Of a stretch of 49,164 nt of DNA, positions 7,901 to 26,248 are shown in pieces. The notes under the pieces were generated by a model. That model had not been told where the DNA came from and ran no database searches. It was given only the letters and a program-made list of their open reading frames with translations. The stretch comes from Parcubacteria group bacterium Greene0416_36 (GTDB lineage: Bacteria; Patescibacteriota; Patescibacteriia; VMEV01). The stretch lies in contig VMEV01000010.1 in NCBI GenBank assembly GCA_007375725.1, positions 1-49,164 of the forward strand. Direction: 5' to 3'. The position numbers and the translations under genes are program-made. Numbering within the stretch: the stretch's first letter is position 1; each line of letters opens with the position of its first letter.

Positions 7901-8330
7901 TAGATGTAAAAAAAATACCCGCGCTGCGAATCAGCTGCGAGACCACGACTCTTTCGATGCCGTTGATAATAAAGGTACCCCGTCCGGTCATGAGAGGAAA
8001 ATCCCCCATATAGATTTCCTGTTCTTTGACATCATTGGTCTTTTTATTAACCAATCGGGTATTGATCCGCAGAGGCGCTTCATAGGTGATATTTTTTTCT
8101 CGAGAAATGGTTTCGGAAAATTTGGGTTCGTCCAAATAAAAATCGAGAAAGGACAATTCTAAATCACGACCGATAAAATCGCGGATGGGAGAGACTTCAT
8201 CGAAGAGCTCACGGAGGCCTTCGCGCAAAAACCAGCTGTAAGAATCTTTTTGAATTTCAATCAAATCCGGGAGAGGAAAAATAGGCTGAAATTTCGAAAA
8301 ATATTTACGAGGGGGTCTCGATTTTGACAT
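4935..8330 (-). CDS. rpoB: DNA-directed RNA polymerase subunit beta
   Basis: SQLSQFMDQ, TPEGPNIGL, GDKMAGRHGNKG and GGQRFGEMEVWALEAYGA motifs; directly upstream of rpoC. Confidence 0.99.
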   Translation of the reverse strand: MSKSRPPRKYFSKFQPIFPLPDLIEIQKDSYSWFLREGLRELFDEVSPIRDFIGRDLELSFLDFYLDEPKFSETISREKNITYEAPLRINTRLVNKKTNDVKEQEIYMGDFPLMTGRGTFIINGIERVVVSQLIRSAGIFFTSTLFRGRRFYGAKIIPNRGAWIEIETDSNHVIWAKIDRKRKVSITALLRAFGFGTNDELLAAFADVDVHPEISYIKNSIAKDTSHTEEEGLKEVYKRIRPGDLATGDNAKSLIHSMFFNFDRYDFGRVGRYKINRRFNFEVSNIPENRILRREDLLAVVKEIIDLNITQREADDIDHLGNRRVRAIGELVQNKFRIGLSRMERIVRDRMSTYDIATLTPARLVNARPVMGVVKEFFMSSQLSQFMDQTNHLSELEHKRRLSAMGPGGLSRDRAGFEVRDVHTTHYGRICPIATPEGPNIGLVGHIASYAKLNEYGFIETPFRKVVKSVVNAPQSAEGEIVRGNIKNPANDKIIAKDGEKITKDLAVKLAKTTLVEIPVRPRVTHDVVYLDAFTEERHVSTPATTPVDDNGYFVTEKAEVRYHGRPSVVTIDQIDYVDVSTMQIFSIATSLIPFVEHDDANRALMGTNMQRQAVCCINPSAPVIGTGIESAVAYHSGHVITAPEDGKIVELSGDKIVLEAAKGVRHEYRLRKFSRSNASTCLNQRVIINRGDKVKKGDTLCDGASTDGGELALGQNIMVAFMSWEGGNYEDAILISEKVVHRDLYTSIHIEDYSIDVRDTKLGPEIVTSDIPNIGEEKLKDLDEQGIIRIGAEVSSGNILVGKITPKGETELSPEEKLLRVIFGEKAKDVRDSSMYLEHGEHGKVVDIKVFSRESGDKLPSGVIKTIQVSIAQLRKIQVGDKMAGRHGNKGVISRIVNVEDMPFMADGKPVDIILSPLGVISRMNLGQLFETYLGLAATKLGYTVATPPIAGVTEGQVRDELEKAGYTRDGQMVLYDGRTGDAFDNKITVGIKYMLKLNHMVEDKIHQRSIGPYSLITQQPLGGKAQFGGQRFGEMEVWALEAYGAAHMLQEILTIKSDDVPGRAKAYESIIKNEPIRKLNVPESFNVLVRELKGLCLDVELLDSASAKVDDQTHELSDDERTGKAKKKK

Positions 8331-8489
8331 AGAATCAAAAAATTCCCGTTTTCCTTATACTTGTGAAATAAAGAGGGCAAAACGAGTTTTTTAAAAATAA
8401 AATTTATAAAAATTTTTGGACTTTTGGGGAGGACATGCGCAAAAATATTCTTCCCGAAGAATATATTGTTTACTAAGGGGTGTCAAATG

Positions 8490-8518
8490 AATATAACAGT
8501 AAATTTAAATAACGTCAA
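8490..8518 (-). promoter_or_regulatory. Candidate sigma70 promoter of rpoBC
   Basis: Minus strand TTGACG-17 nt-TATATT. Confidence 0.55.
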
Positions 8519-8523
8519 ATTGA

Positions 8524-8556
8524 CGGTAGGGGTGGGTTTCCAACCCACCCCTACCG
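8524..8556. repeat. GTAG-type REP-like palindrome; related copies at 9792-9828, 10186-10213, 16348-16377 and 39461-39490
   Basis: CGGTAGGGGTGGGTT-tcc-AACCCACCCCTACCG; every copy starts GTAG/GTAA, folds into a hairpin and is intergenic. Confidence 0.7.
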
Positions 8557-8566
8557 AGGCAAATAA

Positions 8567-9682
8567 CTACTTCTGCACCACTATATAAATATGGTCATCC
8601 ATAGAGGGAACCGACCGCACCCAGAAAGGTGAAAATTCAACAGTGACTTCGCCAACCCCGGGTTTGGAGGCGAAATAATCAATCAATTCCTGGCGAGATT
8701 TGCCTTTGATCGCCTCTTTATCTACGAGAGCGCTGGTTCCTTTGAGGATGCCTTTGGCGGCCATGGAAATTTTGATTTGAGCAGATTTGGCCACGGGATC
8801 ATATTTCTCCAGCTTAAAAGTCAAACTGTCTGAATTGATACCAATGACTTCCATGTCAGTACCCGCCTGACGATACAATTCCTTTTTTGCTAATTCCGCA
8901 ATTTTAACAGGATTCGAAATCAAAACTTGCACCCTGACCTTCATGGCGACCTCAAAATTGGATTTATTATCTCCCGAAGCAGCTGATACGCTTTCGGATT
9001 CAACCAAAACCCAGGAAGCCTCCCGCAAAATGGACTCCCCTACTTCCAAAGCGGATCCGGCCTGCTGGAAAGCGAGATCCTCCAAATCTTTCTGCAAGGT
9101 CGCTTTGGCGGAGGCAATTTCCTGTTCGGTCACGGAATAGACGAATTTTTTACCTCCGGAAAAAGCCTCGGAGCTTTGGCCATAAATAATATTCTCAAAA
9201 GGCTTGCCTAAGCCAGGGACAGAAAACATCCCGGGGGATACATTCCCCTTCTCTCCCTTGTCATCCGCTACGACTTCGACCTCCACTGTGCCTCCCTTGG
9301 GAACTAGAATACGGCGGTTAGTTCTGAAAATAAGCCCGCCGGAAGAGGCAAATCGAGTTTTGGGAACAAGAATTTGATCAGACGAAGATTTGTTGTAAAC
9401 CGTGAGTGTGCCTGTGGCAAAATCATCCGCCCCCGACCCTCCAGGAGCAGACTCGAATTTCTTGGAATCCGACGAGTTGATTTCCAAAACCCGGCCCGCG
9501 ACTCCCTCTTTCTCGGACAAAGAAACCGTTTCAATAAAATCAACGGATAGTTCCGTTTCTTTGGGACGGATGGTGATGGAGGCGTAAGACACCGAAATAT
9601 ATAAAACCACAACAATCACCACCAGGGTCAACCCCGCGAAAGTCAGAGCCAGCTGGCGGTAAAGAGAGACGGAACGATCCAT
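8567..9682 (-). CDS. Membrane-anchored protein with baseplate J-like domain (type common in Patescibacteria)
   Basis: N-terminal TM helix; ATGTLTVYN...L.PKTRF...GLIFRT...VPKGG.VEVEVVAD..GEKGN signature. Confidence 0.7.
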   Translation of the reverse strand: MDRSVSLYRQLALTFAGLTLVVIVVVLYISVSYASITIRPKETELSVDFIETVSLSEKEGVAGRVLEINSSDSKKFESAPGGSGADDFATGTLTVYNKSSSDQILVPKTRFASSGGLIFRTNRRILVPKGGTVEVEVVADDKGEKGNVSPGMFSVPGLGKPFENIIYGQSSEAFSGGKKFVYSVTEQEIASAKATLQKDLEDLAFQQAGSALEVGESILREASWVLVESESVSAASGDNKSNFEVAMKVRVQVLISNPVKIAELAKKELYRQAGTDMEVIGINSDSLTFKLEKYDPVAKSAQIKISMAAKGILKGTSALVDKEAIKGKSRQELIDYFASKPGVGEVTVEFSPFWVRSVPSMDDHIYIVVQK

Positions 9683-9848
9683 ATTAAAATAGGATTTAGG
9701 GTTTAGGATTCAGGAAAGAAACACACACCACAACTCAAGATCATTTAAAAATTACATTCATATTATACCAAAAAAACAAAAACAAAAAAACGTAGGGGCG
9801 GTCCAACGTTACATCGGACCGCCCCTGCATTTATAAAAAAGAATTTCT

Positions 9849-10130
9849 CTAAAGCACCGCATCCTTGCAGGCCTTGGCAACGCGAAATTTGACCACGGTC
9901 TTGGCTGGAATCTGGATCTGGGCGCCGGTGGCGGGATTGCGGCCCATGCGGGCGGCGCGGTCCTTCTTCACGAGCTTACCCAATCCTGGAACCACAAATT
10001 CGCCATTCTTTTTGACCTCAGAATAGGCAATTTCGGTTAAAACACCCAAGAGCATGGCAACATCCTTTTTGGTGTGGCCGGTCTTGGAGGCGACTGCTTC
10101 TAACAACTGAGATTTTGTCATCTTTGACAT
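9849..10130 (-). CDS. hup: DNA-binding protein HU
   Basis: MTKSQL...GLGKL....RAARMGRNPATG..I.IPAK.VVKF. Confidence 0.95.
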   Translation of the reverse strand: MSKMTKSQLLEAVASKTGHTKKDVAMLLGVLTEIAYSEVKKNGEFVVPGLGKLVKKDRAARMGRNPATGAQIQIPAKTVVKFRVAKACKDAVL

Positions 10131-10337
10131 AACCTTTTATTTTAATTATAAAGTTTTTCGAATTTTATTGGATAAGGTATTTTTTGTAAAGACGTGCCAT
10201 GACGCGTCTCTACAAAAAATACCTCGTCCGCAAAAATTCTCTACTTTTATACTCCCTATGATACACAATAAAAAAAGGGTTGCAAGACATTCACTCATCC
10301 ACAGCCCGCCGAAGCTTTAATCTTTTTTTTGGTAAAG

Positions 10338-10598
10338 TCAAATTTTGGCGTCCGTTTCTCCCAAAAAAAGAGACCCAATTTTGCCGTTCAAATCATTGAT
10401 TTGCTTCGTAAAATCAAGGCGGAGCTCTTCTTCTGTACGGACGAAATTCGCGCGCTGATCCACGCTTAAATTTTTATCCGGATCTGCGATCATTGCATCC
10501 AACAAGTCCAATAAGTTTTCCACATAGCGGGACTGTTTTTGGATCTGGCTGTAATAGTAAGAAACGATTTCTTTTTTTTGTTCTTGGGATAAAGCCAT
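10338..10598 (-). CDS. Small hypothetical helical protein
   Basis: ORF from MALSQEQ, tightly packed in the minus-strand gene run. Confidence 0.6.
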   Translation of the reverse strand: MALSQEQKKEIVSYYYSQIQKQSRYVENLLDLLDAMIADPDKNLSVDQRANFVRTEEELRLDFTKQINDLNGKIGSLFLGETDAKI

Positions 10599-10602
10599 AA
10601 AA

Positions 10603-10821
10603 TTATTGCGCCAATTTTGCTCTAGCGGCACGAGTATCGGCGGCATCAACCTCTCTCATTTTCTCCATGATAACTGAGGGCAAAGGAGAACGTTTCAGCT
10701 CAGCAACCCAGCGGTCCGCCAGAGCGACTTTTTCTTTGTCCGACAAAGTTTCCGGTGTTTCCATCTTTTCTTCTGACGGAGCATCCGCTAATTTTTTTTC
10801 TGTCCTAATCTGTTCAGCCAT
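10603..10821 (-). CDS. Small hypothetical protein
   Basis: ORF from MAEQIRT; 4-nt gaps to both neighbours. Confidence 0.6.
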   Translation of the reverse strand: MAEQIRTEKKLADAPSEEKMETPETLSDKEKVALADRWVAELKRSPLPSVIMEKMREVDAADTRAARAKLAQ

Positions 10822-10825
10822 AAAG

Positions 10826-12262
10826 TTACAATAATAATTTAGCGCGCAAATCTTCCATATCGCTCTTTCCATTGCCGTCCGTGTCTTTTTTGAGGGGAGA
10901 TGTCTTGGAAATATTCACCTCATCCCCGTCATCCAGCCCATCGCCATCAGTATCGTTTTTGACAGGATCCGTTCGCACCGAACACACTTCCTCGAAGTCC
11001 GTTAGGCCATCCTTGTCAAAATCCAATTGGACCATCATTTTTTTCTGAGCATCGTCCAGATCACCACAATTTTTAGTTGCGAATCCTCCTAAAACTTCTC
11101 CATAATTGCCGGCAAAAATAACCGGCAAGTTATAGGATCGGCCGAGAAAAGTCCCTTTGGAGCATTGACCGGAGGATAGAGACAGCTCAAAGAATGCGGT
11201 GGGACAGAGCCCAGCGTCCACATCTTCTTTATCGGTTTTCCCGTTTTGGTTCGTGTCGCGGTCCCCCGGGTTAGATCCGTAATCATTGACTTCAATACCA
11301 TCTGATAAACCGTCACCGTCTTTATCCGTACTCAGCGGATCGGAACCAATGCCCAAAAATTCATCTCCATCACCCAAACCGTCGCCATCGGTATCAAACT
11401 TAGTTGGGTCCGTATTGAACCATAATTCTTTCTCATCCGGAATCCCATCTTTGTCATAATCCAAAATAAATTCCGTATTGCTCAATTTGTACGTACAAAC
11501 CGTCTTGGCGGATTCCAATGGAATCTTGGCACAATCTTTGGCGTCTCGGGCCTCGCGATACTGGACCCAGGAACTATATTGATCAAGGACCGTCTTATTT
11601 TTAATCTGGCCCTCGGCTGGAATATCGGATCGAAGCGCATTGACTAAACATAATTTGGAATATTCGAGAGATGTAATGCCGCCACAGACCGAGACACTCT
11701 CTTTGCCAGCGGCGAGAACCGCGAGATTCAAAGCGAGCACGCGGTCCTTGCACTCTACGGCCTCATGGCTATCGTCCAACGAATCGCAAATCCCCGCCTG
11801 GGCCTTATCAACCGCCATAGAGGCAATGCACCGCTCGCGAAGAGATACCGTAGAAATCATGGCGCATTTTTTCGGATCACCGCTCTCTCTGCCTACACGA
11901 AACAGACAATCATTTCTATAACCATCTTCGTAAATACCCAAGCACTGGTCTATGCTTTTGGCATTACTGATCACTTCTGTATGAATAAATTCGTCGATAC
12001 ACCCCTCTTTGGCATCTCCTTCGGCCAAGCCAACACAGCCTTCTTTGGTTGGAATCAAAGGGGGACTCACCAACCTGCCGCCCTCTTCAAAGACCGTATT
12101 GCCGGGTTCATCCAGCAAACGGCGAAAAGCAGGATCTATGCCGCTGGAATCCGGAATCGTCACATCTCCCTCTCCCACGCTGGAAAAAAACCAGACCCCT
12201 CCGGCTAACAAAATAACCGCAGATAAAGCAATGATGGCCCATTGAAATTTAGATAGATTCAT
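10826..12262 (-). CDS. Membrane-anchored Cys-rich protein with Ca-binding DxDxDG (TSP3/binary-toxin-like) repeats
   Basis: N-terminal TM (from MNLSKF), C-x-x-I...C helical repeats, multiple DTDGDGL.DG.E....TDP repeats. Confidence 0.85.
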   Translation of the reverse strand: MNLSKFQWAIIALSAVILLAGGVWFFSSVGEGDVTIPDSSGIDPAFRRLLDEPGNTVFEEGGRLVSPPLIPTKEGCVGLAEGDAKEGCIDEFIHTEVISNAKSIDQCLGIYEDGYRNDCLFRVGRESGDPKKCAMISTVSLRERCIASMAVDKAQAGICDSLDDSHEAVECKDRVLALNLAVLAAGKESVSVCGGITSLEYSKLCLVNALRSDIPAEGQIKNKTVLDQYSSWVQYREARDAKDCAKIPLESAKTVCTYKLSNTEFILDYDKDGIPDEKELWFNTDPTKFDTDGDGLGDGDEFLGIGSDPLSTDKDGDGLSDGIEVNDYGSNPGDRDTNQNGKTDKEDVDAGLCPTAFFELSLSSGQCSKGTFLGRSYNLPVIFAGNYGEVLGGFATKNCGDLDDAQKKMMVQLDFDKDGLTDFEEVCSVRTDPVKNDTDGDGLDDGDEVNISKTSPLKKDTDGNGKSDMEDLRAKLLL

Positions 12263-12272
12263 AGGGTGTAAA

Positions 12273-15266
12273 TTACAAACAGTAACAAGCGGTTTCGAGC
12301 AAATCGTAGCCATGATAAGCACAAGTGTCCCCAGGATTTTCCTGATAGACGGGTGTCTTGCCTCGGGCATTGTCCAGATTGGCAAATCCGGAACAGGTCG
12401 ACACGCCGGTTACGCCATAAGGTTTGCATAAACCGCAAACATTGCTATTGACATCATTAGGCATTGGAGAATAGATGCTTCCTGCGGTTCTCCAATACGA
12501 ATAAGGATCATTAGCCCGGCAATAGTACTCATATTTATCATAGCCGGTAGAGTAATGGTTGGAATAGCTAGGCTGAATACGATCACCCGTATAATAATCC
12601 ATTCCAAAAAAACTCTTACAATTAGTACTTGCTTGGTTGGCGGACAAATTCATTGAGATAGTCGCTATCCCATTATTATTGCAACCACCAGGAGTTGAGA
12701 AGGCATCATCACGAACATATACACAGGCATTGGTCTTAGGGTTAGTAAATCCAACTCCCACGCAGACCCGATTCGTTTTACCGCAAATATCATCGCATCG
12801 AAATCCCTTCTTAAGCGCCGGAAGGCCTGGACTGAAAGCCACCGGTCCGCTGATGGGAACCAAATCCTCTACTCCCGCGCGCACAATCACAAAAGGCTTG
12901 TCTCCAATGAGGCCATCAGCGAATTCAGCCTTTTGATTGATTTCTTTGGATGCGGGATCGGTGGGTGCGGCACAACAATAGTCATGTATGGCTTTATCAA
13001 AAACGTCTGCGCAAACAAGTTTATTGTTCTGGCAGAGGAAAACTCCTTTTTGGCATTCATCGGGCTCGGTAATTCCAATACCTCCCCCACCGACTCGGAT
13101 TTTATCAACATAACAACCTACTCCCAAAGATTCGCCCTTAGGTCCTTTATTGTTGCAAGGCGAATCTTGTGGGAGGAGCTGACAATCTCTCTTGCAAAGA
13201 GTCAGCCTCGCCTTCCATGTGGCTTCATTGTAATTGGGAGGTTTGGACTCTAGAGGATCGCATTGTTCTATACCGGTCACTCGGCCGTCGCCGCAGGTAT
13301 CCGCGTCACATACATCGCCCAGAGGCGCCCAGCCGAATTCTTTCTCTAGTTGGGCGTCAGTATTAGTCTGAAGCGCATCCGAAATAAAGGGACAAAGGTC
13401 CGCGGCTCCGGAGAAACGGATAGAACAGTCTAGGCTCCCTGTATTAACCGTACATTTTCCATTCTCCTTGGCCGGACAAGCACAGACACCATCACCATCG
13501 ATATCATTGTCCGGATCATAGAAACAGCAGTCGCAGACATCGCCTACTCCGTCGGCATCACGGTCTGATTGATCCGTATTGGAAGAAAGAACGCAATTAT
13601 CCTTGGCTCCGGATTTTTCGGGACTTGAAAAACGGGGCCCCGCACAAACGCCATCGCCATCGGCATCATTAGCAGGATCATCAGGACACCAGTCGCAGAT
13701 ATCACCGTAGGCATCTCCGTCCACATTTAGTTGATCTTCGTTGGCATCGTCCACGCAATTATCAGCAGTGTCAATAACCGTATCCTCATCTTTATCCGAC
13801 AAACAGCCCTCCGCAGCGGAGATAAAAAAACGATTACAAATCCACTGGTCGCAATTATCCTGACATTCGGCATTGGAGGGAGTATTGTCTCTAAAATCAC
13901 AGACTTCAAAGCCCTCTTTCTCTCCATTGCCGCACGTGCCAATATCTCCGGAACACGCGTCGCCCAAAAGAGGCCGGCCAGACTCGATTTCCTGCCGCTC
14001 ATCTGTATTTCTCTGATCAGGATTGGGGGCTAGCGGACAATTATCTTCCCCGCCGCGCTTGGTGCCTCCGGATTCGACGCCGCGGAATACGCCGCCGATG
14101 CAGAGGCCGTCGCGGTCGCGGTCATTTTCAGGGTCTAAGGGGCATTCGTCACAGCCGTCTCCCACGCCGTCACGGTCGCGATCACACTGAGCATTGGTTC
14201 GGCGTTCTGGATCGCCCGACTGAGGCTGATAACAAATTCCGGGACGATTGCGGAGCTGGAAGCAGGTCTCGCCAGGGGCGAGCTGATCCACGGTAACAAA
14301 GGCAAATTTCTGATCCTCGGAGCACGCGATATCGCCGAAGCGGTCGCCGGAGGGACAAATATCTAGAGAATTGGGAATACCGTCGCGATCATTGTCGGTC
14401 GTATCCGCGGTCTTGAAGAAAAAACAGCCGGCCGAATCCAGCGGATTATCCACTACACCCTGCCAAGAACCCTCCCCTTTATATTCAAAATTGGCATACA
14501 GCTCGTAGCTGTCGCCATTTTCCATGGAACGATAGCCGTATACCTGGGCTCCGGTGGGACAAAAAAATTGTTTAGAGCGTTCATTCCAGCAAGTCACGGG
14601 ATCCACGTCCTCAGCGCGGCATCCGAAAAATTTATTCTCCGGATCAATGGGAATATCTTTTCCCAGCTCACGGCCCAAGGTCTCCTGCCAGGAAGGCCAG
14701 ACGGAAAAACTCCAGCCCGTCTGGTAACTGCCGGCTCGAAGATCAGGATACACTTTTTTGCCTTTCTTATAATCTTCCAAAATGCGGCGGAGATCATTGA
14801 TTTCCATCACGCGCCGAAGATCTTCCTGAATGCTTTTTTTCACCAGGCCCTCAGGATCAATTTCTTCCCCAATATTAGAATTAAAACGCCAAGTGCGAAT
14901 GAGCTGGCCTAAAATTTCGAGCACTTCCTGCTGGGCTCCTTCATTGAAAGAAATCAAATAAATATTGGAATAAAGCTTATCCCCCACTTTGTTCACAGCC
15001 GCCACATAAATCGTGCGGCCATCCCGGATAGCCGGATAGCCGTCCACCTCCAGCGCTTCCGGTTCCCCTGGATTAGGCACATTCTCCAAATACCATTCCA
15101 AAGGCGATAATATTCCATTGATATAAGTATGCGGATACTGCGCCAAATCCCCGGCATTCTGAATCACACGCACGCCGATCACATTTTGAATGGCAGATGC
15201 CTTGTCAGGTAAAGACAGCTCAAAGATAATAAAAAAAGATAAAATTAAGAGAAGCCGACGGAGCAT
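12273..15266 (-). CDS. Large secreted Cys-rich surface protein with thrombospondin type 3 repeats and a pilin-like segment
   Basis: Signal peptide; DNCP..PNPDQ.N.D.DG.GD.CD repeats; CGNG..E..E.CD repeats; D.RR......L...LE.Y......YP segment. Confidence 0.85.
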   Translation of the reverse strand: MLRRLLLILSFFIIFELSLPDKASAIQNVIGVRVIQNAGDLAQYPHTYINGILSPLEWYLENVPNPGEPEALEVDGYPAIRDGRTIYVAAVNKVGDKLYSNIYLISFNEGAQQEVLEILGQLIRTWRFNSNIGEEIDPEGLVKKSIQEDLRRVMEINDLRRILEDYKKGKKVYPDLRAGSYQTGWSFSVWPSWQETLGRELGKDIPIDPENKFFGCRAEDVDPVTCWNERSKQFFCPTGAQVYGYRSMENGDSYELYANFEYKGEGSWQGVVDNPLDSAGCFFFKTADTTDNDRDGIPNSLDICPSGDRFGDIACSEDQKFAFVTVDQLAPGETCFQLRNRPGICYQPQSGDPERRTNAQCDRDRDGVGDGCDECPLDPENDRDRDGLCIGGVFRGVESGGTKRGGEDNCPLAPNPDQRNTDERQEIESGRPLLGDACSGDIGTCGNGEKEGFEVCDFRDNTPSNAECQDNCDQWICNRFFISAAEGCLSDKDEDTVIDTADNCVDDANEDQLNVDGDAYGDICDWCPDDPANDADGDGVCAGPRFSSPEKSGAKDNCVLSSNTDQSDRDADGVGDVCDCCFYDPDNDIDGDGVCACPAKENGKCTVNTGSLDCSIRFSGAADLCPFISDALQTNTDAQLEKEFGWAPLGDVCDADTCGDGRVTGIEQCDPLESKPPNYNEATWKARLTLCKRDCQLLPQDSPCNNKGPKGESLGVGCYVDKIRVGGGGIGITEPDECQKGVFLCQNNKLVCADVFDKAIHDYCCAAPTDPASKEINQKAEFADGLIGDKPFVIVRAGVEDLVPISGPVAFSPGLPALKKGFRCDDICGKTNRVCVGVGFTNPKTNACVYVRDDAFSTPGGCNNNGIATISMNLSANQASTNCKSFFGMDYYTGDRIQPSYSNHYSTGYDKYEYYCRANDPYSYWRTAGSIYSPMPNDVNSNVCGLCKPYGVTGVSTCSGFANLDNARGKTPVYQENPGDTCAYHGYDLLETACYCL

Positions 15267-17881: not shown

Positions 17882-17888
17882 ATATTTC

Positions 17889-18865
17889 GCCAAATAGATT
17901 TGGCATAAACAAAAATTCGAATTAAAGCGCAAAATATTAGTAAACAAGAAAGAAATTTGTTATAAAACTTCGCGAGAAAATTCTCGCCTCAAAACTAATT
18001 CAACGCATTATAATCTGCAGAAATTCGAAATATAGTGAGGGATAGTACGTCGATACATTAAAGAGTACTGCCTATTCGAGACCTAAAAAAAAGTCTCCAG
18101 TAACTTAAAAGGCTACAATTAAATCTACGCTACTGGACCGTAGTCCGGTAGGGATATCATCATCCGTCCTTTATAAAAGGACCAGAACCATAATCTAATA
18201 AAAAACAAGACGTTCAACATAAATCCGTAGAAAACATGCCGAGCTTCGAAAAGCTCCTAGGCATTAAAACAGGGTGAAACACGGCAAAGGGACCTACAGA
18301 ACACTGATCCAAAATCCCACAACTTTCATGTCTATTATGACCAGACACCTTAAACGAACAATAATGTGCGGCAACACAATCCGAACTACGACACTTAACT
18401 TGGATATCCGAGCAAAAATGCTCCTGAAAAGTAGAGAAATCTGAAACAGTGAACAGGACCCTAGGGGACCAAAATACACTACACATCCGTCCGAAGAATT
18501 CGGACCAATAATAAACCGCAGACTGCAGGAAACAAATATAGGACATCTCGCAGGACATTGATTTCGCCCTTGATAAAAGGGCCAGAAGAACAATTTATCT
18601 TACTTTAAGATAAGATAATTTAATAAATTACAAGGCAAATAAATACATACCGAGCCAATGAAGGCTCCTTGGCACTACAATAAACTAAAGTAAAACAGAC
18701 CATAGTAATCTAAAGGACGCCACTCCATCCGCGAGCAAAGACTCGCCAAAAATCTAAATGACCGCAAGCTAAACCAAGGGAAATAAAACCAATAAGCCCA
18801 AAGGCAAACAATCCGAGAACGAAAAGCTCTCCTATGCAATATTCTTCCTAAACAAACAGAAAGGC
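17889..18865 (-). ncRNA. Putative guide-RNA array 1: 12 hairpins and 11 complete pentamer-periodic tracts
   Basis: Hairpins start at 17889, 17972, 18078, 18166, 18241, 18328, 18410, 18489, 18566, 18652, 18731 and 18815. After each of the first 11, the + strand has a purine every 5 nt for 10-16 steps, starting exactly 5 nt from the stem. No credible ORF. Confidence 0.85.
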
Positions 18866-18890
18866 CTTTTCAAAGAACAGCAACCCAATA

Positions 18891-18996: not shown

Positions 18997-21030
18997 TTAT
19001 TTCTTCAAAAACGCACGGGCATCCAGACAACAATCTGCAAAGGTTTTGCCAGATATATAAGAGGTTCTTAGCTTTTCAGGGAGGGCGTAATAGACAAGCC
19101 CCTTAAATCTCTGATCATAACAGATCGTAACGGATTTGATTTTCCCGTCGCGTTCCGTACGGCCGCGGGCTTGCTTGATACGGATCTTGACCAGCCATTG
19201 ATGGATAGCGAAAGCGCCGTTTTTGCCGAACTTGCGATTCTCGAACTTCGACTCGGGAGAATTCGGATCAGGGTATCCAGGACGAAGGGTGATCACTACT
19301 TGAGCCAGACCATCCGGCAAGTCAATCCCTTCGGAAAAATTCTGCTCCGTACCGAGTAAAACCATGCCTTTGCCACCGCGAAACAATTCCACAGCTTCTT
19401 TGGGAGTTTTCGGCATAGTACCCAGCATCGCATCCGATCTCGGACTATTCGAACTGCGACCTCGGGAATAAGTGATGACATCGAGATTTTCTTTGTCCGG
19501 AGAGGAATAGAATAAGAACTTATCCAACTCTTGATGCGATCCAACCAGAACTAAAACACGAATCCCTTCGGCGTTAAAAAGTTTGCATTCCTTAACAATA
19601 CTTTCCAGGCTCTTGGCAGGTTCTCTATCCGAACGCACACTGTAAGCCAGACTCGGAGTGTCGCTCGGCATATAAATACGGGTGTTCTCAGCCGGGAAAC
19701 CGGATTCGAGAAAAAGATACTGAGGAAAATCAATGCCGGAAATATACCCAAAAACAGTACGGTCGCCAATGGTGGCGGACATCGCCAAAGTTCGGGACAA
19801 AAGCACTTTCTTACGAATCAGAGGCCTCACATGATGGGACTGGATGGTAAGGCGATTGATGACTTTTGGCCCCCTTCCTCCGTATTCTTCTTCTGGAATG
19901 GGTTCAGACACAAAATAACTGAATACATAGTTGAGTGCCATGTGCTTGATTTCATCATTTTCTTCCTTGGGAATAGCATAACGAAGGGACTGGATGTACC
20001 TCCAAAGATTGAAAAGAAGATTCTGCACCTCATTGAGAGCTTCGCGCCCTCCTTCCGCTTGGCTCGCCATTTTCTCCAATTCATTTTTTTTGGATTCCAA
20101 AGGAGAAGTGTCAATGGCTTCCAAGGCTTTGATGAGTTTTTTGATTTCATCATCTTCCAAGACGATTTTGGTGAAAGGAGGCTTATTCCTAGATACGATT
20201 TTCTTGAACACAACGAGAAATTTCTTGAGAGAGACGGACACACTTTCGTCCACTTTCTCCACGACCTCAATCGCGCGTTCTAAATGCCAGTCAGTAATAT
20301 CGTAAGAGAGGACATTGCGCACCAGTGGCGTGATATTGTGAACTTCATCCAGGACCACCGCGTCATGATCTTCCCAAACCCCTTTCTCGCTTTTAAAAAG
20401 CCTCATGATCAAATAAAAGGCATACGTGGTCACAACAATTCCCTCGTACTGCTTAGCCGCATATTTATGAGCATAATACGGACAGGGAACCGCCCCTTCT
20501 TCAAGAGTTTTTCCAGTCGCCTGATCCACCCGATGACCGCAGCTTCGCAGTATCGCACAAGGAATTTCATTGGCTTTCCACGCCGGCTTTTGATCCGGAT
20601 AATAAAGACAATCATGAGACTCTCTGCCTTCGAGCACAAATACCATATCCGAAAAACGCTTAGCGATTTGTTTGGCTTGAGCCAAATTGGGCACCACGTA
20701 GAAAATTCGTTTATAGCCATGCAATTTCCGAAGAACTGAAAGCCACACGATACCAATGAGAGACTTGCCGACGCCAGTTTCTCCCTCCAATAAAACTTGA
20801 TCATGGCCTTGGGATAGAAAACGAAAAGCCTTGAGCTGAGCCTCTCTCATTCGGAAATAACGCGGAATATGCCAAGGAAAACACTCCACATAAGGAGCCA
20901 ATGCCGGATTGGCAGCGACTTCCACAGCAAGCATTTCTCTTGTATACCCTTCCTGAGGCGATTCTTGTACGATCGGAATAGGGGAAGGTGTATCTGCAAT
21001 TGAACCCAATAATAATTGATCCGCCATCAT
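18997..21030 (-). CDS. DinG/Rad3-family SF2 helicase with probable FeS-binding cysteines
   Basis: GETGVGKS (motif I), DEVH (II), SAT (III), EGIDLP (V), QARGRTER (VI); GRESHDC...PC....C...PCPYY cysteine cluster. Confidence 0.88.
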   Translation of the reverse strand: MMADQLLLGSIADTPSPIPIVQESPQEGYTREMLAVEVAANPALAPYVECFPWHIPRYFRMREAQLKAFRFLSQGHDQVLLEGETGVGKSLIGIVWLSVLRKLHGYKRIFYVVPNLAQAKQIAKRFSDMVFVLEGRESHDCLYYPDQKPAWKANEIPCAILRSCGHRVDQATGKTLEEGAVPCPYYAHKYAAKQYEGIVVTTYAFYLIMRLFKSEKGVWEDHDAVVLDEVHNITPLVRNVLSYDITDWHLERAIEVVEKVDESVSVSLKKFLVVFKKIVSRNKPPFTKIVLEDDEIKKLIKALEAIDTSPLESKKNELEKMASQAEGGREALNEVQNLLFNLWRYIQSLRYAIPKEENDEIKHMALNYVFSYFVSEPIPEEEYGGRGPKVINRLTIQSHHVRPLIRKKVLLSRTLAMSATIGDRTVFGYISGIDFPQYLFLESGFPAENTRIYMPSDTPSLAYSVRSDREPAKSLESIVKECKLFNAEGIRVLVLVGSHQELDKFLFYSSPDKENLDVITYSRGRSSNSPRSDAMLGTMPKTPKEAVELFRGGKGMVLLGTEQNFSEGIDLPDGLAQVVITLRPGYPDPNSPESKFENRKFGKNGAFAIHQWLVKIRIKQARGRTERDGKIKSVTICYDQRFKGLVYYALPEKLRTSYISGKTFADCCLDARAFLKK

Positions 21031-21186: not shown

Positions 21187-22053
21187 TTATGTTTTTCCGG
21201 AATTCGCAGGAAGAGAAACTCCTTCCTTCACTTCTTCCTCTTCCATTTTATACGGAAGCGAAATGTATTCATAATCGTCTTCTTTCAAGAGTTCTTTCTT
21301 TACTTCTTGCACACGAACAATCTTGAAGGTACCGTTGGTGCCGTTACAGTTTACACGATAGGACCCGATTCCATAGATCACACCGCCGTTTTTGAGGCAT
21401 TGAAGCGCGATATCGATAGTCTTGGGACCCAAACGATCTTTGACTTCGCAGAGGAATTTGATCTGGGTGCCTTCGGGGTATTCGGGACGCACAATGCGGC
21501 AAGTGATTTCAGCTTTTGGAATAACACCGCGGTCTTCATTGACACGGAATTTTTCCTTTCCGACAATGCACATTTCCTGATCCACAAATTCGGCAGTATA
21601 CCCCAAAATCCTGAAAAAAGAACCGATAATGCTTCCGCTGGTCTTGGTGGAAACTTTCTTGCGATTGCCCAAATCCACATCACATCCCCCGCAACGAGTA
21701 GCCGCATAAATCCACTTGGCAGGCACGCCCGATTTACCAGAATCAGGATCGATCCACACTTTTTTCCTGGCAATTTCTATGCCCGGAAGCCCTTTTACCT
21801 TAACTTTCTTATCAGCAGAATCGATTTCCAATAATTTCTCTGGAGTCATCGGATCGCCCAAAAGTGGAGAGGTCGTTTGGATCGTGATTTCCAAAATGGT
21901 GATATATTTGGTTCCATACGAAACAGGAGAGGAACCTTTCTTTTCCTTTTTCTTCCCCTTTTCAGCGCTCGCCGCACTATCAGCAACGGTTTCAACCACG
22001 GGAATCGGTTCAGTCGCGACAGCAGAGGAACTATCATTTTTTTGTCTAGCCAT
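21187..22053 (-). CDS. Stand-alone RAMP/Cas7-like protein (288 aa)
   Basis: AAGGAG RBS before ATG 22053. LEITIQTTSPLL first strand, G.P...I.AA helix, RPEY...T.I.F and a C-terminal glycine-rich loop GG..YGIGSYR....G..GTF, which is the RAMP/Cas7 layout. Judged by eye, no HMM run. Confidence 0.75.
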   Translation of the reverse strand: MARQKNDSSSAVATEPIPVVETVADSAASAEKGKKKEKKGSSPVSYGTKYITILEITIQTTSPLLGDPMTPEKLLEIDSADKKVKVKGLPGIEIARKKVWIDPDSGKSGVPAKWIYAATRCGGCDVDLGNRKKVSTKTSGSIIGSFFRILGYTAEFVDQEMCIVGKEKFRVNEDRGVIPKAEITCRIVRPEYPEGTQIKFLCEVKDRLGPKTIDIALQCLKNGGVIYGIGSYRVNCNGTNGTFKIVRVQEVKKELLKEDDYEYISLPYKMEEEEVKEGVSLPANSGKT

Positions 22054-22112
22054 GCTAGATCTCCTTAAAAACAAAATACTCAATCTACACAAAACACTAA
22101 AAAATAACAATC

Positions 22113-22353
22113 GAGGTTCAAAGACCCCCTTTACAATACACTACTTAAAAATAAACAGATGAAAAATGAAGGAACATACTCTATTTCGAGGTTAAAACCT
22201 CCAAAACATTAACTTACGAAACAACAAATTAATTAACACCGTTTTAAAGAAATCAATAAAACAGTATATACCGCCCGCATAATGCAGGCCTAAACCTCAC
22301 AGGGATTGACGCAAATCCGCGCAATTATACTCAGAGGTAATCTGCAGGAAAAT
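22113..22353 (-). ncRNA. Putative guide-RNA array 2 (3 units) in the leader of the RAMP-like gene
   Basis: Hairpins 22113-22128, 22188-22201 and 22273-22289; purine every 5 nt on + for 11, 13 and 12 steps from 22133, 22206 and 22294; G.U pairs form only on the minus strand. Confidence 0.82.
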
Positions 22354-22499
22354 TGTCGTTCTAATTGTAAAGAACGTGTTCATCCAAGCATAACCCCAAA
22401 TACTTGTCAAATCTTCCAGGATATGCTTCAATGATGAGTCCAATGTAATTTCAGACCGAGAGACTATAAAACAAATTCCAATCAAAACAGGAGAAACAA

Positions 22500-23489
22500 A
22501 TGAACGATATCGCAACAAGACCAGTACGCGAAAAGAGTCCATGGACCGTGGCCTTTGAAAACAGAAAACATCTCGGAGATTTTTCTACCCCAGCTTGGAA
22601 ACAGGCATATGGTATTATCAATAAAGATTTTTCCAGATTCGAAATACTCGACTGCCCAAATAAAGCGGGACTTACCATTGACTGCGGGCACGCCAGAATC
22701 AAAAACCAAGCAATCGGGATAGAAGGAAACACCTTAATGGTGCACATCTCCGATGTCGCAAGCTTCATTCCCAAAGACAGCCCTCTGGATGTCGAAATGC
22801 AGAGCCGAGTCATATCCATACAAAATTCCAGGATTCTCCCCTTCCGGTTAGCAAAGGAACAGTTCTCGCTGGAACAGAATCAGAAAACCAAATGCCTCAC
22901 GTTCCAATGGGCATTCGATGAATACGGAGAAATCAATCAGTTGCGACGAAAAATATACCATTCCAATGTCGAGGTCCCGATATCGATTTCATTTGAACAA
23001 GCCGATGGCATCCTCGAGGATCCTCTACACAAATACCACCCAGTCATACGAAGCCTCAAATCGATCGGAGAACATCTGGTCGACCTGCGCATCCGCAATG
23101 AGTGGACATTCACGCGCGAACGAAAAAAAACATGGGTGGAAAAAAACGGACAATGGATTTTCACAGACTATATCGACGGGTCTCAATCCCCCAATGACTG
23201 GATCATGCAGGAGGTCATGATTCTAGTGAATTACACCGTGGCATCCCTGTTAGACCAATTGGGTATCCATGGATGCTACACCGATCCCTATCGCTCTCCC
23301 AATGGTATCCGCTATTGCCAAGCCACAGCCCCCATGCATAATTTGGAAGATCTTGTAAATCAAAGGATTCTATTGGCATTATTATCACTCGGGAAAATTC
23401 CTATACCCTATACCCTGGAAGAAATGGAGGAAATCAAAACCAAAACCAATCGCATGTACTTCGCCCGATCTTCGGGAGGGAAAAAATAA
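22500..23489 (+). CDS. RNB (RNase II/R catalytic)-domain protein, predicted inactive
   Basis: TID...LMVHISDVASFIP.DSPLD.E..R..S, FSL, EVMILVN and ATAPM..LEDLVNQRIL match RNB motifs; the catalytic DxDD is replaced by IKNQ. Confidence 0.75.
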   Translation: MNDIATRPVREKSPWTVAFENRKHLGDFSTPAWKQAYGIINKDFSRFEILDCPNKAGLTIDCGHARIKNQAIGIEGNTLMVHISDVASFIPKDSPLDVEMQSRVISIQNSRILPFRLAKEQFSLEQNQKTKCLTFQWAFDEYGEINQLRRKIYHSNVEVPISISFEQADGILEDPLHKYHPVIRSLKSIGEHLVDLRIRNEWTFTRERKKTWVEKNGQWIFTDYIDGSQSPNDWIMQEVMILVNYTVASLLDQLGIHGCYTDPYRSPNGIRYCQATAPMHNLEDLVNQRILLALLSLGKIPIPYTLEEMEEIKTKTNRMYFARSSGGKK

Positions 23490-23500
23490 AAAACAAACAA

Positions 23501-23661
23501 TTCTGTCCTGTCTATTTGCCTAGATCAAAACAAACTAAATTTGAATTTAGGTCCTTTATAATAAAGGACGAAAAAATTTCACATTATTCACGTCAAACAA
23601 ACCTAATTCACGTGGACTTAATTTCATTCCTGTTCGTCTCTGAGCCTCTCTAATCGAGGCT
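23501..23661 (+). ncRNA. Putative guide-RNA array 3 (2 units), opposite orientation, downstream of RNB-like gene 1
   Basis: Pyrimidine every 5 nt at 23501-23546 (10 steps) and 23588-23638 (11 steps); each tract ends 5 nt before a hairpin (23551-23569, 23643-23661) that is followed by GAAA/GGAAAT. Confidence 0.78.
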
Positions 23662-23668
23662 GGAAATC

Positions 23669-23717
23669 AAAAAGTAGCTTCTTCTCAAATTTCAGAAAAA
23701 GCTACTTTTATTTTTTT
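23669..23717. terminator. Bidirectional terminator between convergent arrays 3 and 4
   Basis: AAAAGTAGCTT...AAGCTACTTTTATTTTTTT. Confidence 0.7.
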
Positions 23718-23718
23718 C

Positions 23719-23957
23719 AGCCCCCAGAGAGGGCTCTTGAATATACTATAATTTAGAGTGCCTGAAAGAACAGAACAATAAGGCACGGAAAAGCAAACCG
23801 CGTTTTTAGAAAAACGCCAACACTTAACTCTTGATCGAAATAAAATAATACACAGGAATAAACTATAATAGAACAGCATCCGAGTATGGTGAGTACTCCT
23901 AGAATTGAATGGAATTTACAACAAAGGACAATGATGAGCACCAATCTACAGTAAAAG
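23719..23957 (-). ncRNA. Putative guide-RNA array 4 (3 units)
   Basis: Hairpins 23719-23735, 23800-23817 and 23882-23898; purine every 5 nt from 23740 (12 steps), 23822 (10 of 11) and 23903 (11). Confidence 0.82.
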
Positions 23958-23995: not shown

Positions 23996-24081
23996 GAGCA
24001 AGCCCTTGTACAATCGATCCGGATATGCTTCAATACTCTCGATTTTCAGTATATTTATCTCTCATTTTAAGGAGTCCAAAA

Positions 24082-25029
24082 ATGGCTAAAAATGGCCAAA
24101 AAAAGAAGATCAACTGGAAAGAGTATTTTGAAAAAAGACAGAATTCGTATCTGTCGGATGCGTCACGCGAAGAATTCGTCAAACATCTGCATTCTGCAGC
24201 ATCCGAAAATAAAAAAATAGAAAGGACAATAATCACCAGCATCACATTCGACAAGGAAATCTATATGAATGAGGCGATACTGATCGAATATCCCTATATT
24301 CATATCAGCGTCCCGGATATAGTCAGTCTCGTTACTCCCAAGAAGACACTGGATAAAGAATTGTACGAGAGAGCCTCTTCCGTTAAAGATAACCCTCTTT
24401 TTCCGGAAGATCTCATCAACCTTCGATCCTCTTTCAAGCATGATGAACTTCGAAATGCTTATACTCTCTCTTGGAAATTTGGCGATGCCGGAGAAATTCA
24501 AGAACCCAAATTTTATCCCAGCCAAATTCTATCAATTGGATATATCCAACCTTCGCCAAGCGCTGAAGCTAAAGACTATCCCAAGAACTTGGAACAAATC
24601 GGACTAAAACTCATTGATCGCAGAATCAAAACGTTTCAGCTCTTCAAGAAAGAGGAAAAATTGCCAGTTGCAGAGAAAGAAGGCTATAAAATTTTCGAAT
24701 GCTACCTCAGAAACTCCACCATGAGCTGGGTTGAAAAAGAACTTGCCATCTTTGCCAATATCCAAGCTGGGGAACTATTTCATCAGAAAGGCATAGCCGC
24801 ATGTTTTGCCTCTCCCTATGGTTCTCCCTGTGAAACCCACTATGCTCCCATCATGCGGCCGCTGGATTCCTATCGAGATCTCATCAATCAGCGAGCACTC
24901 TTGTCAATTTTCACCGGACTCAAAAAGGATTTCCCCTATACTCCCGCGCAGATAGCGAAAATAAATGAAAGGATTCAAACACGGTACAGCGCGTGGAAAA
25001 ATCTAGAAAAGAAAAATTCTAATCTATGA
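24082..25029 (+). CDS. Second RNB-like protein (paralogue), predicted inactive
   Basis: AAGGAG RBS before ATG 24082; IHISVPDI...LD.E..ERASSV, ELAIFAN and HYAPIMRPLDSYRDLINQRAL; catalytic aspartate motif lost. Confidence 0.7.
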   Translation: MAKNGQKKKINWKEYFEKRQNSYLSDASREEFVKHLHSAASENKKIERTIITSITFDKEIYMNEAILIEYPYIHISVPDIVSLVTPKKTLDKELYERASSVKDNPLFPEDLINLRSSFKHDELRNAYTLSWKFGDAGEIQEPKFYPSQILSIGYIQPSPSAEAKDYPKNLEQIGLKLIDRRIKTFQLFKKEEKLPVAEKEGYKIFECYLRNSTMSWVEKELAIFANIQAGELFHQKGIAACFASPYGSPCETHYAPIMRPLDSYRDLINQRALLSIFTGLKKDFPYTPAQIAKINERIQTRYSAWKNLEKKNSNL

Positions 25030-25056: not shown

Positions 25057-25100
25057 AAAAAAGTAGCCGATATTTAACCATCAGGCTACTTTTATTTTTT
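25057..25100. terminator. Bidirectional terminator between RNB-like gene 2 and array 5
   Basis: AAAAGTAGCC...GGCTACTTTTATTTTTT, nearly the same as 23669-23717. Confidence 0.7.
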
Positions 25101-25102
25101 CC

Positions 25103-25482
25103 GTGGATTGAATCCACCTGCACACAAATTGATTATGGCTTGAGTCAAGGCAATCCGAAATAATATAGAGAAATCTACGATAATTCAAAAAACAGAACAG
25201 CAATCCGCGCTCTTTTCTAAAAGCGCCTTAAATTTACATTAAATCAATGTAAGTTACACCGGTCGAGACTAAAGAGGTACAATTCGCCTGATAAGTCAGG
25301 CCAGCGATAAAAACCAACTCAAACTACATAAATCTGATATACGTAAATATGACGAAACCATTCGCGTCTGAAAAGACGCCTAGACAAGAAAGCAACGAAA
25401 TCAACACTAAGCCAAATAACAGAACAATAATCCGCGCCCCATTCAATGAGCGCCTACAATAAAAACAAGATTAAATAGAAAA
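25103..25482 (-). ncRNA. Putative guide-RNA array 5 (5 hairpins; 4 complete tracts plus a short leader tract)
   Basis: Hairpins 25103-25117, 25207-25226, 25286-25301, 25364-25379 and 25434-25453; purine every 5 nt from 25122 (17 steps), 25231 (11), 25306 (11), 25384 (10) and 25458 (5). Confidence 0.85.
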
Positions 25483-25505
25483 CACAACAAATTAAGAACT
25501 CATCA

Positions 25506-25534
25506 AACTTATACAATCAATCAATGATTGTCAA
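25506..25534 (-). promoter_or_regulatory. sigma70 promoter for array 5
   Basis: Minus strand TTGACA-17 nt-TAAGTT, then boxA-like GTTCTTAA. Confidence 0.7.
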
Positions 25535-25539
25535 GGGTG

Positions 25540-25571
25540 TGTCGCAAAAACATAATAATGTCTTTGCGACA
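25540..25571. promoter_or_regulatory. Palindromic operator-like site TGTCGCAA-N16-TTGCGACA (second copy at 34375-34406)
   Basis: Identical half-sites and spacing at two loci, each between back-to-back TTGACA boxes. Confidence 0.65.
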
Positions 25572-25577
25572 AAATTC

Positions 25578-25606
25578 TTGACAATTGATTTTAGAAAATT
25601 TATAAT
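25578..25606 (+). promoter_or_regulatory. Consensus sigma70 promoter of the mazEF-like operon
   Basis: TTGACA-17 nt-TATAAT. Confidence 0.85.
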
Positions 25607-25629
25607 ACACACAAATAATGTGTAAAGAT

Positions 25630-25890
25630 ATGTCAACTATCACACTCTCACCCAATACGAAAGAACGCATCAATGTCATGCTTCCACGACGGATCATCCG
25701 TTCGATCGGCCGTCTATCGAAAAATAGAAAACGAAGCCAATTCATCGCAACCGCGGTCGATTTTTATATTGATTCAATGCAAAACAAAAAACTCAAATCT
25801 CTTCTACAAGAAGGAGCGCAAAAAAGATCCGAAAGAGATCAGATAATCACCGAAGAAATGGGCCTCATCGATACGGTTTATGAAAAATAA
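25630..25890 (+). CDS. Ribbon-helix-helix antitoxin (MazE/EndoAI-like)
   Basis: RINVMLP...I......RSQFI..AV pattern; overlaps the start of the toxin gene. Confidence 0.8.
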   Translation: MSTITLSPNTKERINVMLPRRIIRSIGRLSKNRKRSQFIATAVDFYIDSMQNKKLKSLLQEGAQKRSERDQIITEEMGLIDTVYEK

Positions 25891-26248
25891 GACCCTTTTC
25901 CCAAAGCGAGGCGAAATATATCTCGTCAATTTTGATCCTACAGTAGGAGCGGAGATGAAAAAAACACGGCCGGCTCTCATTTTACAAAATGATATTGCAA
26001 ACAAATATAGCGCCATAACCATCATCGCAGCAATCACCTCTCAATTCGAACTGCCTCTCTACCCTACTGAAGTTTTATTGGACTCTTCCGCATGCCGGCT
26101 AGACAAAGAATCAGTCATAGTACTCAATCAAATCCGATCCATCGACAAAACACGCCTGATCAAAAAAATCGGAGAAATTCCAGCGAAGTCATTACAGCAA
26201 ATAGAAATAGCACTAAAAATAAGCCTGGGTCTTATAAAGATAGAATAA
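25880..26248 (+). CDS. mazF: PemK/MazF-family toxin endoribonuclease
   Basis: KRGEIYLVNFDPTVGAE.KKTRPALILQND..N, QIRSIDK.RL. Confidence 0.93.
   Translation: MKNKTLFPKRGEIYLVNFDPTVGAEMKKTRPALILQNDIANKYSAITIIAAITSQFELPLYPTEVLLDSSACRLDKESVIVLNQIRSIDKTRLIKKIGEIPAKSLQQIEIALKISLGLIKIE

Follow-up and report, generated by a model that had tools for sequence, protein, structure and literature searches.

Array 3, on the plus strand of the window analyzed here (the whole stretch of DNA under study, 49,164 nucleotides, which is a complete 49-kb contig of a 1.03-Mb genome), very probably consists of two genes for the guide RNAs (vrRNAs) of a VIPR system, each with 10 to 11 pentamer repeats and a 3' hairpin tail. 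VIPR (Viral Interference Programmable Repeat), a CRISPR-like apparatus that binds DNA as directed by RNA, combines the Vipr protein, its vrRNAs and a vap gene, and the reference in the preprint texts is the type II system of Escherichia phage SUSP1, PDB 36pp (10.64898/2026.04.26.720920, 10.64898/2026.04.26.720927). In those texts Vipr is presented as a small ancestral RAMP and the vrRNAs as RNAs of ~100 nt with 9–16 YNNGG repeats and a structured 3' tail, whose NN bases read double-stranded DNA and skip one base at every repeat; alternative repeats (NNNGG, YNNNG, NNNNG) are named, and seven types are distinguished, with nucleases or helicases as vap in types III–V (10.64898/2026.04.26.720920). 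One Vipr protomer is reported per repeat (10.64898/2026.04.26.720927). We assign the window locus to VIPR because of the homology and fold of its Vipr protein, the anatomy of its vrRNAs and the conservation of vipr, helicase and arrays as a module. A pyrimidine every 5 nt followed by a hairpin is the vrRNA signature; the identification itself came from a profile match in the PDB. The preliminary description of array 3 had the strand logic right and did not recognize the nature of the system.

Anatomy and position of the array 3 units

The first unit, P1 (23496–23575, plus strand), contains 10 pentamer repeats of the form Y-N-N-W-K (23501–23550) and a hairpin tail (23551–23569), then GAAAAA; the second, P2 (23588–23667, plus strand), contains 11 pentamer repeats (23588–23642) and a hairpin tail (23643–23661), then GGAAAT. 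Direct reading and a run-length scan both place a pyrimidine at every fifth base, at 23501, 23506 and onward to 23546 in P1 (10 steps) and from 23588 to 23638 in P2 (11 steps), as had been claimed for the plus strand. This rhythm is not an effect of composition, because the off-phase pyrimidine content is only 0.44 in P1 and 0.50 in P2. Both hairpins are perfect (8 bp in P1, 6 bp in P2) and both start 5 nt past the last in-phase pyrimidine, with GAAAAAA and GGAAATC on their 3' sides; the spacing of 5 nt between run and hairpin and the GAAA or GGAAAT beyond it had likewise been described correctly.

Array 3 lies between the stop codon of RNB-like gene 1 (23487–23489) and a two-way terminator-like hairpin (~23669–23717, both strands). 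This hairpin, recognized from minimum-free-energy folds of both strands and flanked by T/A runs on both sides, closes RNB-like gene 1 and array 3 on the plus strand and array C on the minus strand; a consensus terminator scan omits it, its loop being longer than the scan allows. No terminator-like hairpin was found between the stop codon at 23489 and array 3, the first one being 3' of the units, and it is plausible from this arrangement that array 3 shares a transcript with RNB-like gene 1.

The minus-strand arrays and their repeat form

Four further arrays occupy the minus strand. Array A (17883–18887) holds 12 vrRNA units, one of them degenerate (18322–18403), and has its own promoter-like site (TTGACA-17-TAGATT, 18919–18891); array B (22107–22344) holds three units upstream of vipr; array C (23713–23953) holds three and converges on array 3 at their shared terminator; and array D (25097–25508) holds five and ends at a two-way terminator (~25057–25100) common with RNB gene 2. 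The minus strand thus totals 22 clear units and one degenerate unit in four arrays, and with array 3 included the locus has five arrays and 25 guides, distributed over both strands; most of these guides lack a terminator of their own. Two other features of the contig are recorded alongside. Array D is adjoined by a MazE/MazF-type toxin–antitoxin pair (25618–26248, plus strand; PemK_toxin at 1.6e-31 for 25880–26248) with an operator-like inverted repeat beside it (~25528–25585) and a perfect TTGACA-17-TATAAT promoter at 25578–25606; this region also seems to be where array D starts, in the divergent direction. Farther away, between rpoB and a DHH phosphoesterase gene, the minus strand at 8567–15266 encodes a Baseplate_J-like ORF (371 aa), a TSP3-repeat protein (519 aa) and a 997-aa protein without a family, all three phage-fibre or surface-protein-like in a housekeeping neighbourhood.

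When the 22 clear minus-strand units are aligned at the hairpin, one phase of period 5 holds a pyrimidine with a frequency of 0.96 (z = 10.6), and no other combination of period (3–8) and base class (ten classes) gives a stronger signal; the corresponding frequency in array 3 is 1.0. The minus-strand pentamer reads Y(92%)-N-N-W(79%)-K(83%), and positions 2 and 3 are near-uniform in base use, as is expected for free NN bases. The fixed triplet is W-K-Y, with AUU, UUU and UGU the commonest forms. Its pyrimidine is kept in 211/220 minus-strand repeats and in 20/20 array 3 repeats; the GGY triplet occurs in 9/220 and 0/20, respectively, and a G precedes the pyrimidine in 65–67 of the 220 and in 5 of the 20. 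Units carry 10–18 in-phase repeats, the number of repeats filling the available spacer length, and the guide genes are ~75–95 nt long. Pentamer repeats with a conserved triplet and NN are thus present, as in VIPR, with a consensus that is related to the canonical one and not identical with it.

The structured 3' tail of VIPR guides is present here as a simple hairpin, not as the pseudoknot of the SUSP1 clade. Tail sequences differ between units, yet 97.7% of cells are paired, versus 55.9% in shuffles (0/500 reach the observed value), and all six hairpin pairs show two-sided, compensatory changes. As read from the folds, the sense hairpins include eight G.U pairs and no A-C mismatch breaks any sense stem, which indicates a selected structure on the pyrimidine-periodic strand.

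Scoring of array 3 with a model of the other arrays

The array 3 units share the flanks of the minus-strand units, with a G on the 5' side of the stem and G[GA]A on the 3' side. To score them, a covariance model (R2) was built with only the 22 minus-strand units as its training set, array 3 being left out. P1 obtains 32.1 bits, with E = 3e-4 for the window and E = 0.006 for the whole genome, and is genome-wide the only non-training match with E < 0.01; another match, with 24.6 bits, has E = 0.18. With 18.1 bits (E = 0.17 in the window), P2 is not significant on its own. The two are the best non-training matches in the window, where the degenerate array A unit scores 17.0 bits, the best background match 16.0 bits and the array 3 stretch read on the minus strand 13.3 bits; the training units themselves score 34–55 bits. 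The scoring that the preliminary description had proposed as a check consequently succeeds for P1 and falls short for P2 by itself, although P2 is supported by its tandem position, its strand and its full-length match beside P1. Together with the common flanks and the anchoring of the pyrimidines to hairpins, these scores uphold the earlier view that the periodicity is specific to orientation and not a by-product of A-richness on the plus strand.

Array 3 is nevertheless weaker than the minus-strand arrays, with K-Y in 12/20 repeats versus 180/220, and given this and its model scores it could be decaying. A stronger form of the same idea holds that P1 and P2 are decaying vrRNA relics, which an inversion or duplication moved to the plus strand along with the RNB-like gene and which no longer serve as guides. 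The lower scores of both units, the scarcity of K before the pyrimidine, the presence of A/C-rich repeats such as CAAAA and CAAAC, and an orientation opposite to that of vipr and the helicase (related loci, described below, are dominated by same-strand runs) would all agree with it. Neutral decay, however, would erode pyrimidines, stems and flanks no more slowly than the remaining positions, and all 21 of 21 in-phase pyrimidines, both perfect stems, the 5' G and the 3' G[GA]A are intact; what decay looks like at this locus is seen in the degenerate array A unit (18322–18403) with its 17 bits. We consider the relic reading improbable and continue to treat P1 and P2 as guide genes.

The Vipr protein

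The vipr gene (21187–22053, minus strand) encodes a minimal, Cas7-like RAMP of 288 aa with a family profile match to SUSP1 Vipr and a predicted Csm3/Cas7 fold. With the window ORF alone as query no PDB match was obtained, single-sequence searches found only the ORF itself, and PHROGs, Pfam, NCBIfam and PADLOC gave no match for 21187–22053; scans of viral contigs with the vipr ORF and with RNB gene 1 also found nothing. The ESM Atlas gave two leads, viral clusters without a name (TM about 0.6) and, as a weak one, RAMPs (0.75). A profile of the family (23 members, the first row being the window ORF), in contrast, matches SUSP1 Vipr (PDB 36pp_D) with E = 1.5e-22 over 194/202 residues and with the G-loop aligned, with Csm5 and a Cas7 far behind in the same search of the PDB. 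For an AF2 model made with the alignment (pLDDT 74.4), Foldseek ranks Csm3/Cas7 chains from complexes of type III-A and type VII first, with E = 4.5e-8, a prob of 1.0 and a TMt of 0.53–0.57. A minimal RAMP with RRM core, G-loop and thumb thus stands beside the arrays, as it does in VIPR.

The aligned G-loop reads S-Y-R in the window Vipr, D177-W178-R179 in SUSP1 and s-f-R in the family consensus. In the text describing the SUSP1 complex, H17 and D177 read G1 of the triplet, R138 and W178 read G2, and a purine-excluding pocket (E71, M72, R179) accommodates the pyrimidine (10.64898/2026.04.26.720927). Loss of the G1-reading Asp from the window Vipr would fit the loss of G1 from the triplet, and leaves the shift from G2 to U unexplained. 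Binding of the W-K-Y repeats by the window Vipr is an extrapolation, the triplet lying far from the characterized GGY.

The helicase and related Patescibacteria loci

Adjoining vipr is a gene for a DinG/XPD-type Fe-S helicase (18997–21030, minus strand; Pfam Helicase_C_2 and DEAD_2, four conserved Cys), whose best match in the defence library is PADLOC typeIV_DinG PDLC01439 (6e-40). It is likely the vap accessory gene, and an accessory gene acting on DNA is accordingly present next to vipr and co-conserved with it in 12/13 loci. The helicase is accessory in its distribution, occurring in 1/20 relatives and in 8/400 other Patescibacteria genomes.

Twelve related loci were collected through helicase homologues of 35–38% identity and compared by all-against-all BLASTP of their ORFs. 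A Vipr homologue is encoded on the helicase strand in 12 of the 13 loci (the window and 11 of the 12 related ones), the window vipr ORF matching family members in other loci with E from 3e-15 to 3e-4. In the 12 non-window loci, the helicase strand carries 76 period-5 K-Y runs and the opposite strand 9, and 11 of the 12 have at least one same-strand run. Their ORF-free flanks carry G-Y-N-N-N repeated 10–20 times and ending at a strong hairpin (G at 62–88%), and many units end in a hairpin and U-run with a TTGACA box thereafter, which marks the units of the related loci as small RNA genes. Conservation alongside the arrays is seen for Vipr and the helicase but not for the RNB-like genes, none of which occurs in any of the 12 related loci. 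Searched with R2, 150 class genomes and 150 phylum genomes yielded one isolated match each (34 bits), and G151, which holds one of these matches, contained no further units. R2 misses the related helicase-linked arrays because their flanks differ.

Three loci with a helicase homologue deserve separate mention. In L036 (G443:C1:366700-384600), a helicase (8027–9835) and a Vipr homologue (7092–7784) are accompanied by no same-strand period-5 run by the criteria used; a different repeat form or very few guides may account for this. In L017 (G004:C20), a 122-aa ORF upstream of the helicase (7584–7952) is overlain by period-5 G-Y tracts (7585–7645, 7878–7973) and is probably part of a vrRNA array, not a gene, and a 900-nt GC-rich stretch past the helicase (10200–11116) is a second array. 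In L019, the sequence downstream of the helicase homologue (1834–2770) holds several short units, each ending in a terminator hairpin and two with an identical stem, and only two period-5 runs (2293–2348, 2550–2620), then a tRNA-like gene by eye; a Vipr homologue was not found in this 9.8-kb contig part, and the contig starts at the helicase.

The RNB-only genes

Two paralogous genes on the plus strand are interspersed among the arrays: RNB-only gene 1 (22500–23489, 329 aa; Pfam RNB 2.3e-26, the RNase II/R catalytic domain) and RNB-only gene 2 (24082–25029, 315 aa; Pfam RNB 6.7e-15), which share 30% identity (BLASTP 3e-33). Aligned with B. subtilis RNase R (8cdu), gene 1 reads TIDGADAKDLDDA versus TIDCGHARIKNQA. 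Three of the four Asp of RNB motif I, which we take to be the catalytic residues with the roles assigned in the RNase II literature, are replaced in gene 1 (D-x5-I-x-N-Q), and by reading of the alignment gene 2 has N-E at the last two of these positions. No CSD or S1 domain was found in either gene with Pfam, and the RNB domain stands alone. The combination of four Asp with CSD and S1 domains that defines RNase II/R exoribonucleases is therefore not found in these proteins, which judging from their residues are probably catalytically inactive.

A single-sequence search with RNB gene 1 found only itself. A profile of three RNB paralogues, searched against 1.8 billion representatives, recovered only those three below 1e-30, with ordinary RNase R/II from 1e-24. 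The third paralogue, shorter at 224 aa and 22% identical to gene 1, is encoded on another contig (C19:44383-45090, minus strand; L003 1483–2157), where the vrRNA model has no match. Upstream of both RNB-like genes, the block GGATATGCTTCAAT (22420–22433 and 24021–24034, plus strand) stands behind a TTGTCA or TTGTAC box, and these promoter-like sites are back to back with opposite-strand TTGACA boxes of arrays B and C. The preliminary description had taken array 3 to tie the RNB-like gene to the system by transcription; a shared transcript is indeed plausible from the sequence, whereas the partnership conserved with the arrays is that of Vipr and the helicase.

The embedding of RNB-like genes among the arrays, with array 3 in the 3' UTR of one of them, also invites a reading without Vipr, in which the periodic tracts are platforms or sponges for another RNA-binding oligomer (a TRAP-like ring or the RNB-like proteins) and array 3 is a cis-regulatory 3' UTR of RNB gene 1. 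TRAP sites are triplets spaced by 2 nt, and the triplets here, being 2 nt apart, resemble them. The number of repeats per unit, 10–18 and filling the spacer length, is consistent with a filament but not with a fixed-size ring, and on this ground a TRAP-like ring was dropped; moreover, it is a Vipr homologue that 12/13 loci conserve as the partner, and only at the window locus do RNB-like genes accompany arrays. We regard a non-Vipr platform as very unlikely, and guide genes for Vipr remain our reading of P1 and P2.

Occurrence of the pattern across the genome

Among 8943 G-followed hairpins in the 1.03-Mb genome, 34 have a pyrimidine at all ten positions from -5 to -50. The G[GA]A tail is also present in 21 of those 34, and 16 of the 21 fall within the 17.9–25.5 kb locus, which at 7.7 kb makes up 0.7% of the genome; P1 and P2 are among them. 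Runs of at least nine in-phase pyrimidines are by themselves common genome-wide (2405 outside the locus), but since array 3 is anchored to hairpins, keeps one of five positions near-invariant with positions 2 and 3 random (the opposite of uniform decay), belongs to a pattern so concentrated in 0.7% of the genome and has its like beside helicase homologues of 35–38% identity in other lineages, an origin by chance, base composition or a decayed pentanucleotide microsatellite has next to no probability, and the microsatellite was dropped. Type III toxin–antitoxin RNA repeats, REP/BIME elements and integron attC sites were also rejected, the units being not sequence-identical or wrongly spaced and lacking a matching enzyme. 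An Rfam gathering scan of the window returned 0 matches and a tRNA scan 0, and word searches of the literature on 5-nt periodicity or on DinG in Patescibacteria found nothing relevant.

Own-genome targets were sought in two ways. Contiguous complementarity to the repeat tracts gave a best E of 0.15. Read with a skip-1 NN code, P1 matches at 16/20 bases and P2 at 18/22; shuffled guides reach 16–18, and skips of 0 or 2 do equally well. For every guide of the locus, own-genome matches are thus no better than those of shuffled guides, which fits foreign targets and proves nothing. The only sequencing runs that contain the locus are four DNA runs from one study.

Proposed mechanism

From the sequence, we infer that these RNAs are produced and bound by Vipr, that they are directed to targets, and that array 3 shares the transcript of RNB-like gene 1. 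Transcription of that gene would probably run on through P1 and P2, which would then be cut out of the 3' UTR of its mRNA. In each vrRNA, the fixed triplet W-K-Y with its almost invariant pyrimidine alternates with two free bases NN, and the hairpin would form the constant tail. By analogy with SUSP1, one Vipr protomer would occupy each repeat to build a helical filament, with 10 to 11 protomers on P1 and P2; the filament would bury the fixed triplet and present the NN bases, which would pair with double-stranded DNA while every third target base is skipped. The DinG-like helicase would act as the accessory (vap) enzyme.

A further step, which we put forward tentatively and think rather unlikely as a whole, is that the locus is a VIPR variant in which a near G-less triplet (AUU, UUU, UGU) is read by an altered G-loop (S-Y-R for D-W-R) and two dead RNase II-like proteins have been recruited as a new accessory class. 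Such proteins might act on the short 3' ends of G[GA]A type past the hairpin tails, as clamps or as protection, or might help to cut guides from long transcripts. If this were so, the placement of array 3 in the 3' UTR of an RNB-like gene would couple production of the factor to its own substrates.

Comparison with known systems

The RNB-only genes share homology with the catalytic domain of RNase II and RNase R. They differ from these enzymes in that the RNB domain occurs alone, three of the four Asp are replaced in gene 1, and the close relatives are only paralogues from the same genome.

Type IV-A CRISPR-Cas (the Csf complex with CasDinG) resembles the locus in its Cas7-like RAMP backbone, in a guide with a 3' hairpin and in its DinG helicase. 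Compared with class 1 CRISPR-Cas in general, the locus is without identical direct repeats, Cas1/Cas2 and Cas5/Cas6/Cas8, and the 5-nt periodicity is encoded in the guide itself. PADLOC detected no Cas protein in the window vipr, the RNB genes or two neighbouring unknown ORFs, with the DinG model alone found, and none among 14 non-helicase neighbour ORFs from four related loci. The hairpins differ between units and the would-be spacers carry a period-5 constraint, which sets the locus apart from a type IV-like CRISPR-Cas system.

A text on non-canonical VIPR repeats names 21 period-5 clusters with non-canonical triplets, e.g. GAC/NN, CAC/NN, WGT/NN and TGH/NN (10.64898/2026.10.21.760802), and as there, the arrays of this locus have period 5, a fixed triplet other than GGY and a Vipr-like fold next to them. 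Of the forms named in that paper's text, to which the comparison applies, WGT fits just 39/220 minus-strand repeats and TGH just 38/220. The helicase-linked Patescibacteria loci agree with the window in having vipr, a DinG/XPD-type Fe-S helicase and many hairpin-tailed pentamer guides; they differ in using G-Y-N-N-N, which fits the printed YNNNG form, and in that many of their units have a terminator and promoter of their own.

With SUSP1 VIPR the locus shares a homologous minimal RAMP, pentamer-repeat guides built of a Y-ending triplet and two free bases with a structured tail at the 3' end, a single accessory enzyme acting on DNA, and long flanks free of ORFs. The SUSP1 system is phage-borne, whereas this one is on the chromosome of an ultra-small Patescibacterium; GGY there is W-K-Y here; the conserved pseudoknot tail there is replaced by a hairpin of variable sequence with GGAU or GAAA; and here 25 guides are spread over five arrays on both strands, mostly terminator-less. 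The window locus is thus another member of VIPR, a system already in print, with variant features of its own: the 25 guides in five arrays, the G-poor W-K-Y triplet, and two RNB-only genes, in the first of which array 3 separates stop codon and terminator. The RNB-like pseudo-nucleases, if functionally linked, would represent an accessory type that goes unmentioned in the accessible portions of the VIPR preprint texts. VIPR is months old (2026 preprints), and the examples characterized in those texts come from phages, use GGY and are directed against rival phages or satellites. The locus extends this set to the chromosome of an ultra-small bacterium of symbiont type, where a helicase is the partner and the pyrimidine is the one strictly kept base of the triplet; it thereby helps to bound what Vipr proteins need to recognize.
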